From a virus (Duplodnaviria; Heunggongvirae; Uroviricota; Caudoviricetes): a DNA stretch of 10,585 nt. The stretch lies in IMG/VR virus record IMGVR_UViG_2541047825_000014; one strand, given 5' to 3'. Below the pieces are notes generated by a model. That model saw nothing but the letters and a program-made list of their open reading frames with translations, was not told the DNA's origin and made no database searches. Shown here piece by piece: positions 709-10,209 of the stretch. The translations under genes were made by a program, and so were the position numbers. How positions within the stretch are numbered: the first letter of the stretch is position 1; each line of letters begins with the position of its first letter.

Positions 709-3700
709 ATGGGTAAAGGCAGCAGTAAGGGGCATACCCCGCGCGAAGCGAAGGACAACCTGAAGTCCACGCAGTTGCTGAGTGTGATCGATGCCATCAG
801 CGAAGGGCCGGTTGAAGGTCCGGTGGATGGGTTAAAAAGCGTGCTGCTGAACAGTACGCCGGTGCTGGACAGTGAGGGGAATACCAATATATCCGGCGTC
901 ACGGTGGTGTTCCGGGCAGGTGAGCAGGAGCAGACTCCGCCGGAGGGGTTTGAATCCTCCGGTTCCGAGACGGTGCTGGGTACGGAAGTGAAATATGACA
1001 CGCCGATCACCCGCACCATCACGTCGGCAAACATCGACCGTCTGCGCTTTACCTTCGGTGTGCAGGCACTGGTGGAAACCACCTCAAAGGGGGACAGGAA
1101 TCCATCGGAAGTCCGCCTGCTGGTTCAGATACAGCGTAACGGTGGCTGGGTGACGGAAAAAGACATCACCATTAAGGGCAAAACCACCTCGCAGTATCTG
1201 GCCTCGGTGGTGGTGGATAACCTGCCGCCGCGCCCGTTTAATATCCGGATGCGCAGGATGACGCCGGACAGCACCACAGACCAGCTGCAGAACAAAACGC
1301 TCTGGTCGTCATACACCGAAATCATCGATGTGAAACAGTGCTACCCGAACACGGCACTGGTTGGCGTGCAGGTGGACTCGGAGCAGTTCGGCAGCCAGCA
1401 GGTGAGCCGTAATTATCATCTTCGCGGGCGCATTCTGCAGGTGCCGTCGAACTATAACCCGCAGACGCGGCAATACAGCGGTATCTGGGACGGAACGTTA
1501 AAACCGGCATACAGCAACAACATGGCCTGGTGTCTGTGGGATATGCTGACCCATCCGCGCTACGGCATGGGGAAACGTCTTGGTGCGGCGGATGTGGATA
1601 AATGGGCGCTGTATGTCATCGGCCAGAATTGCGACCAGTCGGTGCCGGACGGCTTTGGCGGCACGGAGCCGCGCATCACCTGTAACGCTTACCTGACCAC
1701 ACAGCGCAAGGCGTGGGATGTGCTCAGTGATTTCTGCTCGGCGATGCGCTGTATGCCGGTATGGAACGGGCAGACGCTGACGTTCGTGCAGGACCGACCA
1801 TCAGATAAGGTGTGGACCTATAACCGCAGTAATGTGGTGATGCCGGATGATGGCGCGCCGTTCCGCTACAGTTTCAGCGCCCTGAAGGACCGCCATAATG
1901 CCGTTGAGGTGAACTGGACTGACCCGGATAACGGCTGGGAAACGGCAACAGAGCTTGTGGAGGACACGCAGACCATTGCCCGTTACGGTCGTAACGTCAC
2001 GAAGATGGATGCCTTTGGCTGTACCAGCCGGGGGCAGGCACACAGAGCCGGGCTGTGGCTGATTAAAACGGAGCTGCTGGAAACGCAGACCGTGGATTTC
2101 AGCGTGGGCGCAGAAGGGCTTCGCCATGTACCGGGCGATGTCATTGAAATCTGCGATGATGACTATGCGGGTATCAGCACCGGTGGTCGTGTGCTGGCGG
2201 TGAACAGCCAGACCCGGACGCTGACGCTCGACCGTGAAATCACGCTGCCATCCTCCGGTACCACGCTGATAAGCCTGGTTGACGGAAATGGCAATCCGGT
2301 CAGCGTGGAGGTTCAGTCCGTCACCGACGGCGTGAAGGTAAAAGTGAGCCGTGTTCCTGACGGTGTTGCTGAATACAGCGTATGGGGGCTGAAGCTGCCG
2401 ACGCTGCGCCAGCGCCTGTTCCGCTGTGTGAGTATCCGTGAGAACGACGACGGCACGTATGCCATCACTGCCGTGCAGCATGTACCGGAGAAAGAAGCCA
2501 TCGTGGATAACGGGGCGCACTTTGACGGTGACCAGAGCGGCACGGTGAATGGTGTCACGCCGCCAGCGGTGCAGCACCTGACTGCCGAAGTCACCGCAGA
2601 CAGCGGGGAGTATCAGGTACTGGCCCGCTGGGACACGCCGAAGGTGGTGAAGGGCGTGAGCTTCCTGCTTCGCCTGACCGTGGCAGCGGACGACGGCAGT
2701 GAGCGGCTGGTCAGCACAGCCAGGACGACGGAAACCACATACCGCTTCAGGCAACTGGCGCTGGGGCGTTACACGCTGACGGTCCGGGCGGTAAATGCGT
2801 GGGGACAGCAGGGCGATCCGGCATCGGTATCGTTCCGGATTGCCGCACCGGCAGTGCCGTCGAGGATTGAGCTGACGCCGGGCTATTTTCAGATAACTGC
2901 CACGCCGCATCTTGCGGTTTATGATCCGACGGTACAGTTTGATTTCTGGTTCTCGGAAACGCGGATTACCGATATCAGGCAGGTTGAAACCACAGCCCGC
3001 TATCTTGGCACGGCGCTGTACTGGATAGCCGCCAGTATCAATATCAAACCGGGCCATGATTATTATTTTTACATCCGCAGTGTGAACACCGTTGGCAAAT
3101 CGGCATTTGTGGAGGCTGTTGGCCAGCCGAGTGATGATGCATCCGGCTATCTGGATTTTTTCAAAGGAGAGATAGGGAAAAGCCATCTGGCTCAGGAGCT
3201 GTGGACGCAGATTGATAACGGTCAGCTTGCGCCTGACCTGGCTGAAATCAGGACGTCCATTACGGATGTCAGCAATGAAATCACGCAGACCGTCAATAAG
3301 AAACTGGAAGACCAGAGTGCGGCAATTCAGCAGATACAGAAGGTTCAGGTTGATACAAATAATAACCTGAACAGCATGTGGGCTGTGAAGCTGCAGCAGA
3401 TGCAGGACGGACGCCTTTATATCGCGGGTATTGGTGCCGGTATTGAGAACACCCCTGACGGCATGCAGAGTCAGGTGCTGCTGGCGGCGGACAGGATTGC
3501 GATGGTTAATCCTGCGAATGGCAACACAAAGCCGATGTTTGTTGGTCAGGGCGATCAGATATTCATGAACGAAGTGTTCCTGAAATATCTGACGGCTCCC
3601 ACCATTACCAGCGGCGGTAATCCTCCGGCATTTTCCCTGACACCGGACGGGCGGCTGACGGCAAAAAATGCCGATATCAGCGGTAACGTGAATGCGAACT

Positions 3701-4188
3701 CCGGGACGCTCAACAACGTCACGATTAACGAGAATTGCCGGGTTCTGGGAAAACTGTCCGCGAACCAGATTGAAGGCGATCTCGTTAAAACAGTGGGCAA
3801 AGCTTTCCCCCGTGACTCCCGTGCACCGGAACGGTGGCCATCAGGGACCATTACCGTCAGGGTTTATGACGATCAGCCGTTTGACCGGCAAATTGTTATT
3901 CCAGCGGTGGCTTTCAGCGGTGCCAGACATGAACGGGAGAATAGCGATACTTATTCGTCATGCCGCCTGATAGTGAAGAAAAACGGGGCTGAAATTTATA
4001 ACCGAACGGCTCTGGATAATACTCTGATTTACACGGGTGTTATTGATATGCCTGCAGGCAGTGGCGTAATGACACTGGAGTTTTCGGTATCAGCATGGTG
4101 GGTAAATGGCTGGTATCCCACAGCAAGTATCAGCGATTTGCTGGTTGTGGTGATGAAGAAAGCCACCGCAGGCATCAGTATCAGCTGA
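709..4188 (+). CDS. J: Tail tip / host specificity protein J (central tail fiber), with a divergent C-terminal receptor-binding region
   Basis: 1159-aa ORF starting [34 protein letters not shown], recognised as lambda gpJ over most of its length. GGAG at 697-700 precedes the ATG at 709. The last ~330 aa (from about nt 3180) are AT-richer and do not look like the lambda LamB-binding C-terminus as I recall it. Confidence 0.95.
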
Positions 4189-4206
4189 ATTTTATAACCC
4201 CAATAC

Positions 4207-4233
4207 GGGCGTCAGAAATGACGCCTTTTTTAT
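4207..4233 (+). terminator. Rho-independent terminator downstream of J
   Basis: GGCGTCA (4208-4214), loop GAAA, TGACGCC (4219-4225), followed by TTTTTT (4226-4231). Confidence 0.7.
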
Positions 4234-4255
4234 TGCAGAAAAGCGAGAGGTAATT

Positions 4256-4855
4256 ATGCGTAAATTATGTGCTGTTATTCTGTCCGCAGTAGTCTGGCTG
4301 GTTGCCGCTGGTACGCCAGCGAGCGCAGCAGAGCATCAGTCCACACTAAGCGCCGGGTATCTTCAGACCCATACTGATATGCCAGGCAGTGATGACCTGA
4401 AGGGCATTAACGTGAAATACCGTTATGAATTTACGGACACGCTGGGGCTGGTGACGTCATTCAGTTATGCCAATGCCAAAGATGAGCAAAAAACGCATTA
4501 CAGCGATACCCGCTGGCATGAAGATTCAGTGCGTAACCGCTGGTTCAGCGTGATGGCGGGGCCGTCTGTACGCGTGAATGAATGGTTCAGTGCTTATGCG
4601 ATGGCGGGTGTGGCTTACAGCCGTGTTTCGACGTTCTCCGGGGATTATCTCCGCGTAACTGACAACAAGGGGAAAACGCACGATGTGCTGACCGGAAGTG
4701 ATGACGGTCGCCACAGCGACACGTCTCTGGCATGGGGGGCTGGCGTGCAGTTTAACCCGACCGAATCCGTGGCCATTGATATTGCTTATGAAGGTTCCGG
4801 CAGTGGCGACTGGCGCACTGACGGTTTCATCGTTGGTGTCGGTTATAAATTCTGA
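4256..4855 (+). CDS. lom: Lom outer membrane protein (Ail/Lom/OmpX/PagC beta-barrel family); lysogenic-conversion moron
   Basis: 199-aa ORF with a signal peptide (MRKLCAVILSAVVWLVAAGTPASA) and a C-terminal GFIVGVGYKF beta-barrel terminus, recognised as lambda Lom. Ribosome-binding site GAGAGG at 4243-4248. Flanked by terminators on both sides. Confidence 0.95.
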   Translation: MRKLCAVILSAVVWLVAAGTPASAAEHQSTLSAGYLQTHTDMPGSDDLKGINVKYRYEFTDTLGLVTSFSYANAKDEQKTHYSDTRWHEDSVRNRWFSVMAGPSVRVNEWFSAYAMAGVAYSRVSTFSGDYLRVTDNKGKTHDVLTGSDDGRHSDTSLAWGAGVQFNPTESVAIDIAYEGSGSGDWRTDGFIVGVGYKF

Positions 4856-4881
4856 TTAGCCAGGTAACACAGTGTTATGAC

Positions 4882-4909
4882 AGCCCGCCGGTTCAGGCGG
4901 GCTTTTTTG
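4882..4909 (+). terminator. Rho-independent terminator downstream of lom
   Basis: AGCCCGCC (4882-4889), loop GGTTCA, GGCGGGCT (4896-4903), followed by TTTTTT (4903-4908). Confidence 0.7.
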
Positions 4910-4919
4910 TGGAGTGGAT

Positions 4920-6983
4920 ATGGCAGCAGTAAAAATCTCAGGTGTGCTGAAAGATGGTGCGGGAAAACCAATACAGAACTGCACTATTCAACTGAAGGCA
5001 AAGCGTAACAGCACCACGGTACTGGTCAACACAGTGGCCTCTGAAAATCCGGATGAAGCCGGGCGTTACAGCATGGATGTTGAGTATGGACAGTACAGCG
5101 TCACCCTGCTGGTTGAAGGTTTTCCGCCTTCACATGCCGGGACCATTACCGTCTATGAAGGTTCCAGACCAGGTACGCTGAATGATTTTCTCGGTGCCAT
5201 GACGGAAGATGATGTCATGCCGGAGGCATTGCGTCGTTTTGAGGAAATGGTGGAAGAAGCGGCACGCAACGCTGAAGCCGCCTCTCAGAGCGCAGCGGCA
5301 GCAAAGAAATCAGAAACAGCAGCGGCATCGTCCAGGAATGCGGCGAAAACATCAGAGACGAATGCAGGTAACAGCGCGAAAGCGGCAGCTTCTTCAAAAA
5401 CAGCCGCACAAAACGCAGCAACAGCGGCAGAACGTTCAGAGACAAATGCCCGTGCGTCAGAAGAAGCCTCCGCAGACAGTGAAGAGGCTTCCCGCCGTAA
5501 TGCAGAGTCAGCCGCTGAAAATGCCGGAGTCGCCACCACAAAAGCGCGGGAGGCCGCAGCAGACGCAACAAAGGCCGGGCAGAAAAAGGATGAGGCTCTG
5601 TCGGCAGCGACACGGGCTGAAAAGGCGGCAGACCGCGCAGAAGTCGCAGCGGAAGTGACTGCAGAGCCCTATGCGAATATAGTGCCGCCGCTGCCTGATG
5701 TGTGGATACCGTTTAACGATTCACTGGATATGATTGCGGGTTTTTCTCCGGGCTATAAAAAAATAGCTATTGGTGACGATGTGGTTCAGGTCGCCAGTGA
5801 TAAACAGGTTAATTTCAGTCGCGCATCAACGGCAACATATATCAACAAATCTGGCGAACTGAAAACGGCGGAAATTAATGAGCCGCGATTTGAGTGTGAT
5901 GGCCTGCTTATTGAGGGACAAAGAACGAACTACATGCTCAATTCGGAAAGTCCAGCCAGCTGGGGGAAGTCATCAAACATGGATGTGCCCGAAACCGGGA
6001 CGGATAGTTTTGGTTTTACTTATGGAAAGTTTGTCTGCAACGATTCTCTGGTTGGGCAAACTTCGGCTATTAATATGGCATCAATTGCTGCAACAAAGTC
6101 AGTTGATGTCTCAGGCGATAACAAGTACGTGACAACCTCATGCCGTTTTAAAACAGAACGACAGGTAAGGTTACGTATACGGTTTGATAAGTATGATGGT
6201 AGTGCAACAACTTTTCTTGGCGATGCGTACATTGATACGCAAACGCTTGAAATTAATATGACAGGTGGTGCTGCCGGCAGAATTACGGCACGAGTCAGGA
6301 AGGATAAGACCACAGGCTGGATTTTTGCAGAGGCAACGATTCAGGCAATTGATGGTGAGTTAAAAATAGGCTCTCAGATACAGTATTCTCCTGAGCAGGG
6401 TGGGGCAACAGTATCTGGTGACTATATTTATCTTGCCACCCCACAAGTAGAGAATGGGCCGTGTGTATCATCATTTATTATTTCAGGAGGCAGCGCAACG
6501 ACAAGAGCCAGTGATTTGGTTAGTATCCCCACCAGAAATAATCTTTATAAGTTACCATTTACTTTTTTACTTGAGATTCATAAAAACTGGGATATTGCAC
6601 CAAACGCCGCACCCCGCGTGTGGGATATAGCAGCAGCCAATACCGGGCAATCAGCAATTGCAGCAATCAACAGAGGTAGTGGTAAGTTATATATGAGTCT
6701 GTCAAACCCTTCAGGCTCGTATGTTAATAGCGCAGCGACAGATGTATTTGCAGAGAAAACCACATTTGGATGTATTGCAAAAGCTGATGGTCACTTTCAT
6801 GTGGTGACAAATGGTAAAGCGGTTAATGAAGTTTATTGTGAATATAATGGCGTGACCGCTGATAAAAATATCCGATTTGGAGGGCAGACGAATACTGGAG
6901 AACGACATCTGTTTGGCCATATTCGCAATTTCCGCATATGGCATAAAGAATTAAATGACAGGCAATTAAAAGAGGTCGTATGA
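4920..6983 (+). CDS. stf: Side tail fiber protein (Stf-like), mosaic: conserved N-terminal tail-attachment region, Ala-rich repetitive shaft, divergent AT-rich C-terminal putative receptor-binding domain
   Basis: ORF track gives 4914-6983 with a GTG start. I prefer the ATG at 4920 (product MAAVKISGVLKDG..., matching the lambda Stf N-terminus) with GGAG at 4911-4914. No tfa-like gene follows. Confidence 0.85.
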   Translation: MAAVKISGVLKDGAGKPIQNCTIQLKAKRNSTTVLVNTVASENPDEAGRYSMDVEYGQYSVTLLVEGFPPSHAGTITVYEGSRPGTLNDFLGAMTEDDVMPEALRRFEEMVEEAARNAEAASQSAAAAKKSETAAASSRNAAKTSETNAGNSAKAAASSKTAAQNAATAAERSETNARASEEASADSEEASRRNAESAAENAGVATTKAREAAADATKAGQKKDEALSAATRAEKAADRAEVAAEVTAEPYANIVPPLPDVWIPFNDSLDMIAGFSPGYKKIAIGDDVVQVASDKQVNFSRASTATYINKSGELKTAEINEPRFECDGLLIEGQRTNYMLNSESPASWGKSSNMDVPETGTDSFGFTYGKFVCNDSLVGQTSAINMASIAATKSVDVSGDNKYVTTSCRFKTERQVRLRIRFDKYDGSATTFLGDAYIDTQTLEINMTGGAAGRITARVRKDKTTGWIFAEATIQAIDGELKIGSQIQYSPEQGGATVSGDYIYLATPQVENGPCVSSFIISGGSATTRASDLVSIPTRNNLYKLPFTFLLEIHKNWDIAPNAAPRVWDIAAANTGQSAIAAINRGSGKLYMSLSNPSGSYVNSAATDVFAEKTTFGCIAKADGHFHVVTNGKAVNEVYCEYNGVTADKNIRFGGQTNTGERHLFGHIRNFRIWHKELNDRQLKEVV
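5260..5650 (+). repeat. Low-complexity Ala/Ser/Glu-rich degenerate repeats encoding the fiber shaft of Stf
   Basis: Translation contains repeated A-A-K/S-x-S-E-T-N/A-A motifs (AAKKSETAAASSRNAAKTSETNAGNSAKAAASSKTAAQNAATAAERSETNARASEEAS...). The GC-rich GCN-codon runs generate spurious overlapping ORFs on both strands. Confidence 0.6.
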
Positions 6984-7258
6984 AAGATTTAACTTTGAAG
7001 TTTCATGACAAACTGCAGTTTAAGGCCTTCCTGTCATCTCTTGGCTGGGCGGAAGATGAAGACCTCCAGAATAAACTGTTAGTTGATGAAATTGGTTTCA
7101 CCTACACAGAAACAGGGGTAACAGAAGAGGGAGAACCTGTCTGTATCCGGAATGATGGTTATTTTGTCAACATTCGCATTCTTGATGACTTGTTTGATGT
7201 TTCTGTATTCTCTGATTATGTCGTGGAGCTGGAAACACCGCTTCGGGAATGGAGCTGA
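6980..7258 (+). CDS. Hypothetical acidic 92-aa protein, translationally coupled to stf
   Basis: The ATG at 6980 overlaps the stf stop (ATGA at 6980-6983). AGAGG at 6971-6975. No signal peptide or TM segment. No family recognised. Confidence 0.55.
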   Translation: MKDLTLKFHDKLQFKAFLSSLGWAEDEDLQNKLLVDEIGFTYTETGVTEEGEPVCIRNDGYFVNIRILDDLFDVSVFSDYVVELETPLREWS

Positions 7259-7270
7259 AAGGAGGAAATA

Positions 7271-7558
7271 ATGGATATAAGCCCCTTACTTCATGCACTT
7301 TGTGCTGTGGCTGCGCAGATACTGGTTGGTCTTTTTACCGGAAACTGGGCTTACGGAGCGATAGCCGGTTGTACGTTCTTCATTGCGCGTGAACATACCC
7401 AGGCAGAATATCGCTGGATTGAAATGTTCGGGCATGGCAAGCGAATGAATATGCCGTGGTGGGGCGGTTTTGATCCGCGTGCTTGGGATGTGGCAAGCCT
7501 GATGGATTTTGCTGTGCCGGTGGTGGCGTGTCTGCTGATCTGGATGTTGATCCGTTAA
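7271..7558 (+). CDS. Hypothetical small membrane protein (95 aa, two predicted TM helices)
   Basis: Strong ribosome-binding site GGAGGA at 7261-7266, 5 nt before the ATG. Hydrophobic N-terminal segment (LLHALCAVAAQILVGLFTG...AIAGCTFFIA) and C-terminal segment (FAVPVVACLLIWMLI), with a Trp-rich loop (NMPWWGGFDPRAWD). No family recognised. Confidence 0.6.
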   Translation: MDISPLLHALCAVAAQILVGLFTGNWAYGAIAGCTFFIAREHTQAEYRWIEMFGHGKRMNMPWWGGFDPRAWDVASLMDFAVPVVACLLIWMLIR

Positions 7559-7573
7559 ATATAAAAAGTAAAA

Positions 7574-7609
7574 AGCCGCAGTAACTTGTCATGATAGGAT
7601 ACTGCGGCT
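7574..7609 (-). terminator. Hairpin likely terminating the minus-strand dinI-like transcript (possibly bidirectional)
   Basis: AGCCGCAGTA (7574-7583) and TACTGCGGCT (7600-7609) are reverse complements with a 16-nt loop. On the minus strand the hairpin is followed by TTTTTACTTTTTAT (complement of 7561-7573). There is no T-run on the + strand. Confidence 0.45.
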
Positions 7610-7675
7610 GGCTGGTTAACTTTCGATAGTGCGAGTATTGAATGATTTCCAGCCGTTACTGATTTTACGTGCTAA

Positions 7676-7924
7676 TTAGTGAACAAACCACTCATCAGCA
7701 GACTCCCAGGTATCTTTCAGAGTTTCCTGAACAAAAGTTTTAGCTGAATCTTTATCGGCGGTGCGCGTAACAGAAAGGCCATCGTTGCTGGTGGCTTTTA
7801 CGATCACCTCTACATCGTCATAACGTTTACTGATGCGTCGGGTTAATTCTTCCTTTAACGCATCCACAGCACCGTTTGGCATTTTAGTCATTTTTTCTTT
7901 GGCTATGCAGATCTCAATACGCAT
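7676..7924 (-). CDS. DinI-family DNA-damage-inducible protein (prophage-encoded DinI-like)
   Basis: 82-aa [38 protein letters not shown]...[11 protein letters not shown] with the characteristic DinI N-terminus and acidic C-terminal TWESAD(D/E)WF motif. GAGGGA ribosome-binding site upstream. Confidence 0.9.
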
Positions 7925-7937
7925 AAAAGTCCCTCTA

Positions 7938-7989
7938 TACTGTGTTTGTATACAGTGTTATTTTTAACTGTATGGATAAACAGTGTCAA
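7938..7989 (-). promoter_or_regulatory. SOS-regulated sigma70 promoter of the dinI-like gene with two tandem LexA boxes
   Basis: Two CTGT-N8-ACAG motifs: box 1 TACTGTGTTTGTATACAGTG (7938-7957) and box 2 AACTGTATGGATAAACAGTG (7966-7985). On the minus strand a perfect -35 TTGACA (complement of 7984-7989) abuts box 2, and a -10-like TAAAAA lies 17 nt downstream (complement of 7961-7966). The -35 overlaps the integrase stop codon. Confidence 0.7.
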
Positions 7990-9083
7990 GAGGTCTTATT
8001 TCTGCTCCTTTGGAGCTCTTCAAAACGATTATGTAAAGATTTCGGATACAGTTCGGTATATACCTGCCATAGCACGTTTAATGAACGATGCCCTGTAACC
8101 TGAGCGACTTCCTCAATACTAAAACCAGCCTCAAATAAGCGACTTGCCCCTTCTCTACGCAAATCATGGTATCGCAGATCTTTAATACCTAATTTGCTTC
8201 TTACCCTCTGAAATCCTGCAGTAACAGAAGTGCTGTTATATGGAAAAATGAATTCCGATTTTTTGGGCTGTCGTTGGACGATATCCCAGGCTTCCCCAAG
8301 CAAGGCTACTTTCATGTGGTTGCCTTCCTTTTTGCGTGGATCTTTCCTGTCTCTTACGAGTATAGATTTTTGTTCCTGGTCGAGATCTTCCCATCGTAAC
8401 CGGCATACTTCTCCGATCCGCATACAGGACCACACAGAAAATTTGAGGATATCAACGAACGGAATTTTTGAGCATTTATGAGTAGATCGTTGTTGAAGGC
8501 CTTCAATGAGCATGTCCAGTTCATCAGATGCTGGTCTACGATTACGACGGTTTGATTTACCAATCAAACCAAGTTTAAGTAGATATGGGCGAGCGCTTTT
8601 CGCCGGGTTTGATGTGTAATTAATTCCGTATACAGGTTTGGCCGCATCCAGAACACTGCCAAGATAACTAACATCGTGGCTGACTGTTGCTGGACCTGCA
8701 CCAGCGTTGTTTCTTAGCCTGCAATGTTCAATTACGTCATTTTCTGTCAGTTCAGATAGTTTGATCGCGGAGATGTCACTATCCATAAGCAGTTCCAGCA
8801 CATATCTTTTAGTACGGCCTGCTTTACCTCCGGCATTTGGGTCATTTAAATATTTGTGTAGTAAGTCACGGACTGTAAGTCCGTCAACTGCATTTGATGA
8901 TGGAATGCCATATAGATCTAATTCCATCACTTTCTGTGTTCCCCATGTTTTGGCATGAGCATGTTTAGGGAATGTTTTGCTTTCCCTGTAAGTGATAACA
9001 CCTTTTTCTTTGATAATCACATTACAGCGATAGCGTGGTGTGCCATCGGATTTTAGTCGTTTCTCTATGTTATAGTACGCCAT
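7986..9083 (-). CDS. int: Phage integrase, tyrosine site-specific recombinase family
   Basis: 365-aa ORF. The C-terminal catalytic region carries R...HxxR...Y hallmarks (RYHDLRREGASRLFEAG...VTGHRSLNVLWQVYTEL). It diverges from dusA with an 88-bp intergenic spacer. Confidence 0.93.
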   Translation of the reverse strand: MAYYNIEKRLKSDGTPRYRCNVIIKEKGVITYRESKTFPKHAHAKTWGTQKVMELDLYGIPSSNAVDGLTVRDLLHKYLNDPNAGGKAGRTKRYVLELLMDSDISAIKLSELTENDVIEHCRLRNNAGAGPATVSHDVSYLGSVLDAAKPVYGINYTSNPAKSARPYLLKLGLIGKSNRRNRRPASDELDMLIEGLQQRSTHKCSKIPFVDILKFSVWSCMRIGEVCRLRWEDLDQEQKSILVRDRKDPRKKEGNHMKVALLGEAWDIVQRQPKKSEFIFPYNSTSVTAGFQRVRSKLGIKDLRYHDLRREGASRLFEAGFSIEEVAQVTGHRSLNVLWQVYTELYPKSLHNRFEELQRSRNKTS

Positions 9084-9171: not shown

Positions 9172-10209
9172 ATGCACGATAATCATGAAACACAAAAAAT
9201 TAATCAAACCAGCGTGATGCCTGAAAAAACTGGTGTTTACTGGAATTCTCGGTTTAGCATTGCTCCTATGCTTGACTGGACGGACAGACATTGCCGTTAT
9301 TTCTTGCGTCTGCTTTCCCGCAATACGTTGTTGTATACCGAAATGGTGACCACAGGGGCGATTATTCACGGTAAAGGTGATTACCTGGCGTACAGTGAAG
9401 AAGAACATCCGGTAGCGTTGCAACTCGGGGGTAGCGATCCGGCGGCGCTGGCACAGTGTGCGAAGCTGGCAGAAGCGCGTGGATATGATGAGATCAACCT
9501 GAATGTCGGCTGCCCGTCTGACCGGGTGCAGAACGGCATGTTTGGTGCGTGTCTGATGGGTAATGCGCAGCTGGTTGCCGACTGCGTGAAAGCGATGCGC
9601 GATGTGGTGTCGATTCCGGTGACGGTGAAAACGCGTATTGGCATCGATGATCAGGACAGCTATGAATTTCTCTGCGATTTCATCAACACCGTTTCCGGCA
9701 AAGGTGAGTGTGAGATGTTCATCATCCACGCACGTAAAGCCTGGCTTTCTGGGTTAAGTCCGAAAGAAAACCGTGAGATCCCGCCTCTCGATTATCCGCG
9801 TGTGTATCAACTGAAGCGTGACTTTCCGCATCTGACGATGTCGATTAACGGTGGTATCAAGTCGCTGGAAGAAGCTAAAGCGCATTTGCAACATATGGAT
9901 GGCGTGATGGTCGGGCGCGAGGCGTATCAGAATCCGGGTATTCTGGCGGCGGTAGACCGAGAGATTTTTGGTTCCTCGGATACCGATGCCGATCCGGTGG
10001 CGGTAGTGCGCGCCATGTATCCGTACATTGAGCGTGAACTCAGCCAGGGTACGTATCTCGGCCATATTACCCGGCATATGCTGGGCTTGTTCCAGGGTAT
10101 TCCTGGCGCGCGGCAGTGGCGGCGTTATTTAAGTGAAAATGCCCATAAAGCGGGTGCAGACATTAATGTGCTGGAACACGCGCTCAAACTGGTGGCGGAT
10201 AAGCGTTAA
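9172..10209 (+). CDS. dusA: tRNA-dihydrouridine synthase A (DusA)
   Basis: 345-aa ORF with a Dus-family TIM-barrel signature ([17 protein letters not shown]...NLNVGCPS...). The exact start is uncertain: the ATG at 9172 has no clear ribosome-binding site, and an in-frame alternative lies at 9217. The first ~150 nt are notably AT-rich compared with the rest of the gene. Confidence 0.9.

Follow-up and report, generated by a model that had tools for sequence, protein, structure and literature searches.

What does a small gene do that occupies the same place behind the same kind of tail fibre gene in otherwise unrelated phages? The question is raised by virus record IMGVR_UViG_2541047825_000014, a stretch of 10,585 nucleotides (nt), hereafter the window, which forms the right end of a phage 21/mEp460-type lambdoid prophage (positions 6700-7600 are 99.6% identical to phage mEp460_4F5 and 98.6% to phage 21). 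An open reading frame (ORF) of 92 amino acids (aa) begins there at the very end of the side tail fibre gene stf (Table 1). Our results show that this ORF is under purifying selection, that it is invariably linked and coupled to one type of fibre C-terminal module, and that its slot is equivalent to those of known chaperone solutions. These gene comparisons give good support to its assignment as an accessory factor dedicated to this type of Stf.

The ATG of the ORF (6980-6982) and the TGA of stf (6981-6983) overlap by 4 nt, at a junction that reads ...AAGAGGTCGTATGA..., and the end of stf contains a ribosome-binding site, AAGAGGT, whose GAGG core (6972-6975) is 4 nt ahead of the ATG. Both features had been recognised in the original prediction, made from the sequence alone, which took them to imply coupled and stoichiometric expression with the fibre. 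The ATGA overlap does imply coupled translation, but no fixed ratio between the two products. The description of the protein as small, acidic and cytoplasmic-looking also holds: it has 10.7 kDa, a pI of 4.17, 20 acidic versus 8 basic residues and no hydrophobic segment, and its maximal Kyte-Doolittle hydropathy over 19 residues is 0.83, so that it has neither a transmembrane (TM) segment nor a signal peptide. An AlphaFold2 (AF2) model built on a 20-sequence alignment is confident, with a mean predicted local distance difference test (pLDDT) score of 89.9. It predicts a compact alpha/beta domain with the topology beta1, two helices, four strands and a short helix, and the conserved C-terminal tail, which ends P-x-R-x-W, is less ordered. 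The predicted fold and the tail would be compatible with a binding protein. A structure search of BFVD with the model returned only uncharacterised small proteins of uncultured phages; we found no fold similarity to solved fibre assembly proteins or known fibre chaperones, and no sequence similarity to any known fibre chaperone.

The length of the ORF proves nothing by itself, because the window holds 25 six-frame ORFs of at least 80 aa, mostly artefacts, and coding was tested directly instead, on 33 distinct nucleotide variants. Their differences at codon positions 1, 2 and 3 number 824, 886 and 2162, respectively. In frame, the ratio of non-synonymous to synonymous substitution rates (dN/dS) is 0.22-0.34 for unsaturated pairs and 0.31 within the lambdoid clade; in distant pairs the synonymous sites are saturated (52 of 59 changed), with changes at 52 of 217 non-synonymous sites. 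The other two frames give dN/dS values of 0.65-3.1 and contain 5-11 stops. The ORF is a real gene under moderate purifying selection. The original prediction had named a lack of conservation in homologous loci, or of a coding signal, as what would speak against it; the ORF is conserved and the selection is specific to its frame.

A synteny survey had also been proposed as a check. It covered about 45 distinct loci from six phage groups and metagenomes, and this Stf C-terminal type co-occurs with the ORF in every locus examined: the same fibre module stands upstream and the start is coupled to it, as would be expected if the protein is an accessory factor dedicated to this fibre. Among the 31 distinct variants compared in this respect, the start codon always either overlaps the stop of the fibre gene ahead of it, by 4 nt (ATGA or GTGA) or 1 nt (TAATG), or follows that stop across a 1-nt gap, and a purine-rich Shine-Dalgarno sequence (GGAG, GAGG or GGGG) is found at the same place. 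The alignment of the upstream protein to the window Stf extends in every variant from around residue 260 to the C-terminal end, at identities down to 30%. Loci fetched later (PhiR40_1, 2G7b, JeffSchatz and AKFV33) have the same linkage and the same upstream fibre, and so do five of six metagenomic contigs with distant family members, the sixth (L085) having a frameshifted upstream frame. The phage groups are lambdoids, Drexlerviridae, Queuovirinae, Dhillonvirus, Markadamsvirinae and Vequintavirinae, and the locus is also found in an Aeromonas phage. Its genome neighbourhoods are otherwise unrelated; in T1-like phages it lies among replication genes. Since the gene is kept under selection in phages that lack a second fibre, the linkage is to the upstream module and not to a downstream fibre.

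The upstream partner in the window, Stf, matches PHROG 1419 ('tail protein') and is 98% identical to the side tail fibre of phage 21. Its C-terminal module consists of a GTA-head-spike-fibre domain, which also matches PDB 6tb9, the RcGTA head spike fibre Rcc01080 (E 7e-10), followed by a LamG/galectin-like domain. The BASEL authors describe the homologous Gp22 of phage IrisVonRoten as a proximal fibre from which a galectin-like C-terminal domain protrudes (PMC11990801). Sliding identity profiles reveal a hypervariable cassette inside the LamG-like domain, probably the receptor-binding surface, which is swapped independently of both the small ORF and the Stf sequence on either side. The G+C content is 40-43% over positions 6000-7200, against 55-60% in the upstream tail genes, a drop that is consistent with a horizontally exchanged cassette. 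The last 29 residues of Stf are conserved, and their motif, H-[IL]-[RK]-[ND]-[FL]-R-[IV]-W-H...L.D.Q, also ends the upstream fibre in distant metagenomic loci, where it reads ...H-I-R-N-x-R-I-W-H...L.D.Q... The motif resembles the usual C-terminal signature of LamG_3 domains. The 92-aa ORF covaries with these 29 residues; we did not count this as evidence of contact, because the two are encoded by adjacent DNA and because of the LamG_3-like signature.

Two side observations concern such fibres. In the group of phages 4A7, 1W, 3W and Lambda_4C10, stf is interrupted by an insertion sequence (IS) element, with three transposase genes near its 3' end, and the small ORF is intact and 100% identical. 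The Rhodobacter phage RcWaterboi encodes a minor tail protein (L078, 2187-3433) that has the GTA-spike-fibre part only, with no LamG part, and is followed by no small gene; an 88-aa gene that overlaps the start of the minor tail protein gene does not match the family profile.

The protein had been said to belong to no recognisable family. This holds for Pfam, NCBIfam and PADLOC, but the protein has a full-length match to PHROG 1361, of unknown function (E 3.2e-42, residues 1-91 on profile positions 1-91 of 92), and a weaker full-length match to the sister PHROG 18574 (E 1.7e-6). Searches with tblastn found it in 147 phage records, and the gene is present in phage 21, mEp460 and the BASEL phages IrisVonRoten, KarlJaspers, KurtStettler and JeffSchatz. 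Its DNA was matched by megablast in 1131 of 5426 complete E. coli genomes, about a fifth of them, where it is labelled 'hypothetical protein'; nearly all records seen annotate it as hypothetical. A pattern scan of species-representative genomes gave a single locus, in E. ruysiae, and the matches in IMG/VR were mainly near-identical prophages. In one IMG/VR prophage copy, codon 11 of the small ORF is changed from AAA to the stop codon TAA (L028, 5031). A profile search of 1.8 billion representative proteins returned about 80 matches, mostly stand-alone proteins of 85-110 aa, and the family shares the motifs M-x-D-x-x-L-x-F, D-[IV]-[IV]-G and G-Y-x-V-N-x-R and a C-terminal P-x-R-x-W. Longer variants occur in rV5-like myoviruses (110 aa, with reciprocal tblastn matches) and in an Aeromonas T5-like phage (104 aa). 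Matches in five long proteins (P0065, P0070, P0092, P0112 and P0113) looked like domain fusions and were rejected as spurious, because they add up weak similarities between the 'GYxVNVRvlDDD' hairpin and the repeats of PKD- or TPR-repeat proteins.

The slot behind the fibre gene is one that assembly chaperones hold elsewhere, as had been argued from position. The T5-like Yersinia phage phiR2-01, with the gene order ltfA, g124, fibre 2, has a bona fide Caudo_TAP gene there (g124, PF02413), whose overlap is likewise of the ATGA type. Where JeffSchatz has the LamG-ended module and the small ORF, rV5 has gp41, which ends in a Peptidase_S74 domain. The slot is allelic to these known chaperone solutions, Caudo_TAP and fused S74. 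The ORF itself gave no match to PF02413 even at E<=1, in a search where the positive control phiR2-01 g124 scored E 2.6e-19, and Peptidase_S74 (PF13884) has no match in the window Stf or the 92-aa ORF; it is present in downstream second fibres of related loci. The complete genome of phage 21 holds no second fibre, no Caudo_TAP gene and no protein with the docking peptide described below. With no other fibre chaperone there, the 92-aa ORF is the only candidate helper for the phage 21 Stf.

DISCRIMINATING Two readings of the gene, which are not mutually exclusive, stand out. The one that we rank first, and to which we give an even chance, is that the gene encodes a helper of the fibre, in assembly or another accessory role, and represents a new sequence family. 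The protein would be the dedicated partner of a fibre end made of a GTA-spike-fibre domain and a terminal LamG/galectin-like domain. Its translation would directly follow that of the fibre protein, through coupling of termination and reinitiation. The protein would bind the conserved C-terminal end of the nascent fibre, and this binding may be needed for the fibre end to fold, trimerise or stay soluble. The job would be the one done elsewhere by lambda-type Tfa (Caudo_TAP) or by C-terminal S74 domains, to both of which the protein is unrelated. Physical binding to Stf, the chaperone activity and a possible later release are inferred. The original proposal of a dedicated chaperone or accessory factor thus stands for its accessory part, given the invariant linkage and the coupling, whereas the chaperone part stays conditional and faces a serious structural rival.

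Several observations weigh against an assembly role. At locus L022 the ORF is 99% identical, yet Stf residues 361-660 are only 20-37% identical; at L061 and L072, Stf residues 331-510 are 90-100% identical and the ORF is 54% identical. Since the cassette swaps independently, the small protein is no chaperone matched in its specificity to the presumed receptor-binding surface. Furthermore, virulent phages always encode, next after the gene, a second fibre with a locus-specific N-terminal peptide, a context that fits a structural joint at least as well. Finally, the published virion analyses covered gel bands of at least 19 kDa (SIA3lw) or four major bands (AKFV33).

According to the second reading, which we consider possible but doubtful, the protein is a structural joint or adaptor that stays on the distal end of the proximal fibre and forms or completes a socket for the N-terminal peptide of the distal fibre. 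This would be analogous to the T4 gp35/gp36 knee, and in phages without a second fibre the protein would just cap the fibre end. Tfa-class assembly proteins can likewise remain on the fibre tip. The position of the gene between two fibre genes favours a joint: a second fibre with an S74 chaperone domain comes next in most sampled virulent siphovirus loci and in the lambdoids 2G7b and HannyBb, starting 9-12 nt past the small ORF (85 nt in Ioannina). The bodies of these second fibres are very different, and their first ~20 residues are conserved (M-[VA]-T-x-T-x-I-P-x-D-I-x-x-L-K), with a variant form in metagenomic loci. This peptide was seen only in loci with a LamG-ended fibre and the small ORF, being absent from phage 21, the window and DT57C, and the fused single-fibre T5-like phages (DT57C LtfA, SP3) lack the module, the small gene and the peptide together. 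These patterns suggest that the LamG-ended tip is a non-covalent docking place of the distal fibre. Both fibre proteins are virion components in AKFV33 and SIA3lw, according to published virion protein analyses, and in the model of the BASEL authors the distal fibre of IrisVonRoten is joined to its proximal fibre, Gp22 (PMC11990801).

In DT57C, LtfA (L075, 2980-6210) is naturally fused. The N-terminus of AKFV33 ORF137 is matched by its first ~205 residues, and practically the whole AKFV33/IrisVonRoten distal fibre by residues 508-1073. This single DT57C polypeptide is thus the counterpart of proximal fibre, small ORF and distal fibre together in AKFV33 and IrisVonRoten.

The joint fits less well where there is nothing to dock. 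The gene is under purifying selection in lineages that have no second fibre or docking-motif protein, such as phage 21 and the temperate contig L084, whose next gene is a weak Peptidase_S24 match and not a fibre; it is also kept in rV5-like phages, where the following gene lacks the N-terminal motif. Moreover, no detection of the small protein in virions has been reported, in studies that looked at 19 kDa and above only. The virion proteomics of rV5, which carries a different allele, and of W70, which has other fibres, are uninformative on the small protein. The retained protein and the LamG-ended tip might even form a universal socket for which the ~20-residue peptide of downstream fibres is the plug, a scenario that we regard as rather unlikely. 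If it is true, enterobacterial siphoviruses and myoviruses swap distal receptor-binding fibres as cassettes, and the phage-21-type lambdoids carry an empty socket.

It is improbable that the gene encodes a hitch-hiking cytoplasmic factor unrelated to the fibre, for example an anti-defence protein, a DNA mimic, an immunity protein or a moron; comparison of the protein with the PADLOC defence models gave no family at E<=0.1. That the ORF is no gene at all, being either a chance ORF, as ORFs of this size are common in the window by chance, or an extension of Stf by frameshifting into the -1 frame in which it lies relative to stf, is refuted by the conservation data: selection is frame-specific, full-length protein homologues reach down to ~30% identity, the AF2 model is confident, and a Stf-ORF fusion was rejected because there is no slippery heptamer, only 7 codons are open upstream of the ATG and the frame offset varies among variants (ATGA, TAATG, 1-nt gap).

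Catalogues already listed the family, with its function unknown. New here are the identification of its exact partner module, the finding that it extends over both siphoviruses and myoviruses, the equivalence of its slot to those of known chaperones, and the docking peptide that goes with it. A recent structural modelling study of these fibres leaves the small gene undiscussed (PMC11990801). The gene is likewise unmentioned in the BASEL papers of 2021 and 2025, the genetics and cryo-EM of DT57C, the tail fibre atlas preprint, the AKFV33 and SIA3lw papers, the CASP16 target on T5 pb1 and the literature on lambda Stf engineering. An accessory gene behind a fibre gene is unsurprising to specialists, and the value lies in the family, the exact partner module and a testable mechanism. 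If the protein acts on these fibres as proposed, their models are incomplete without it, and it would represent a third, unrelated solution for the assembly of fibre ends, beside Caudo_TAP and the S74 intramolecular chaperones. If it is needed for the assembly of LamG-ended fibres or for distal docking, it must be co-transferred when phages or phage-derived delivery particles are retargeted.

Table 1. Coordinates of the features discussed (positions refer to the window unless a related locus is named)
Feature	Position	Strand	Evidence or remark
J	709-4188	+	
lom	4256-4855		between J and stf
stf, side tail fibre gene, 689 aa	4914..6983	+	Pfam phage_tail_N, aa 5-134, E 6e-67
GTA-head-spike-fibre domain, Stf aa 332-532	5907..6509	+	NCBIfam NF048003 GTA_spike_fiber, 55.7 bits versus a cut-off of 36
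LamG/galectin-like C-terminal domain, Stf aa 563-684	6600..6965	+	Pfam Laminin_G_3, E 2.7e-5 (24.8 bits, just below the gathering score of 27.6)
Hypervariable cassette inside the LamG-like domain, Stf aa 571-660	6624-6893	+	sliding identity profile
Conserved last 29 Stf residues (...LFGHIRNFRIWHKELNDRQLKEVV)	6894..6980	+	66-93% identical where the cassette is 20-30% identical
Shine-Dalgarno of the 92-aa ORF, AGAGGT, inside the stf end	6971..6976	+	read from the sequence
92-aa ORF, PHROG 1361, putative fibre accessory protein	6980..7258	+	ATG start
95-aa two-TM membrane protein gene, last in the lambdoid stf operon	7271..7558	+	PHROG 1443, E 2e-57, unknown function
dinI, DinI-family gene	7676-7924	-	Pfam DinI, E 1e-19; between fibre operon and integrase
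Integrase, 365 aa	7986-9083	-	directly beside ORF 9172-10209
Second-fibre N-terminal peptide, related loci	L003 5289-5350; L074 5059-5120; L072 4063-4125		
IS-interrupted stf in phage 4A7	L055 2417-4833		

The gene after the small ORF encodes a two-TM protein of 95-97 aa in the window as well as in phages of the phage 21, 2E9 and PhiR49_2 types; the phage 21 counterpart bears the annotation of a putative membrane protein with two TM domains. In the window this gene starts 12 nt after the 92-aa ORF and has its own strong Shine-Dalgarno sequence (AGGAGG, 7260-7265). It occurs in temperate lambdoid loci only, placed after the second fibre where there is one (2G7b, HannyBb). It is at most a candidate member of the fibre system and may be a lysogenic-conversion or exclusion gene. 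Its last ~7 residues vary among variants (LIWMLIR versus LVWLLVNRG), a difference that marks a mosaic boundary.

Further along, the arrangement of the DinI gene is the same in PhiR49_2 and PhiR40_1. The integrase lies beside an ORF that we take to be dusA (9172-10209), although its first ~25 residues look unlike those of E. coli K-12 DusA. An integrase next to dusA is the arrangement of dusA-integrating elements; phage 21 integrates at icd, and the shared tail and fibre module is joined here to another integration module than that of phage 21. Terminator-like hairpins with T-runs are found on the + strand upstream of stf, at 4207-4226 (after J) and 4882-4903 (after lom), and phage 21 has annotated terminators at the matching places, so that expression of stf, the 92-aa ORF and the 95-aa gene presumably depends on late antitermination. 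The Ala/Glu-rich coiled coil of Stf (5200-5660) yields out-of-frame or antisense ORFs (5209-5658 on the + strand, 5215-5613 and 5285-5539 on the - strand), and the high-G+C J gene an antisense ORF of 461 aa (1801-3186, - strand); these long ORFs look like artefacts. A scan of the whole window with Rfam and a promoter and terminator scan of 4100-8100 gave nothing specific to the 92-aa ORF.

How does this gene compare with known systems? The lambda Tfa, Mu U and P2 G proteins (Caudo_TAP, PF02413) are likewise small and acidic, and encoded directly downstream of, and coupled to, a fibre gene; the Caudo_TAP gene of phiR2-01 sits where AKFV33, IrisVonRoten and L6jm have the small ORF. Unlike them, the 92-aa protein has no sequence or fold match to the family and its partner fibre ends in a LamG/galectin-like globular domain, whereas Caudo_TAP clients have a different fibre tip; lambda Tfa is also about twice its size. 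The S74 intramolecular chaperones of K1F endosialidase, T5 pb1 and rV5 gp41 are an alternative solution at the same locus, but S74 domains are fused to the fibre and auto-cleaved, and the 92-aa protein is a separate polypeptide without similarity to them. The T4 gp35/gp36 joint and the branched LtfA-LtfB fibres of DT57C and phiEco32 resemble the systems in which the small ORF lies between proximal and distal fibre genes. For a distal fibre to attach, the proximal fibre has to offer it a docking site (PMC4728585; PMC11990801). DT57C and phiEco32 branch without such a small protein, using a different LtfB N-terminus, and the small ORF is also present where the distal fibre is absent. Finally, T4 gp57A, a general fibre chaperone, is likewise small, acidic and cytoplasmic, and it acts on fibre trimerisation, as the 92-aa protein would by hypothesis. 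Yet gp57A is an all-helical coiled coil that serves several fibre clients and is encoded away from them, whereas the 92-aa protein is predicted to be alpha/beta and is tied to a single fibre module.

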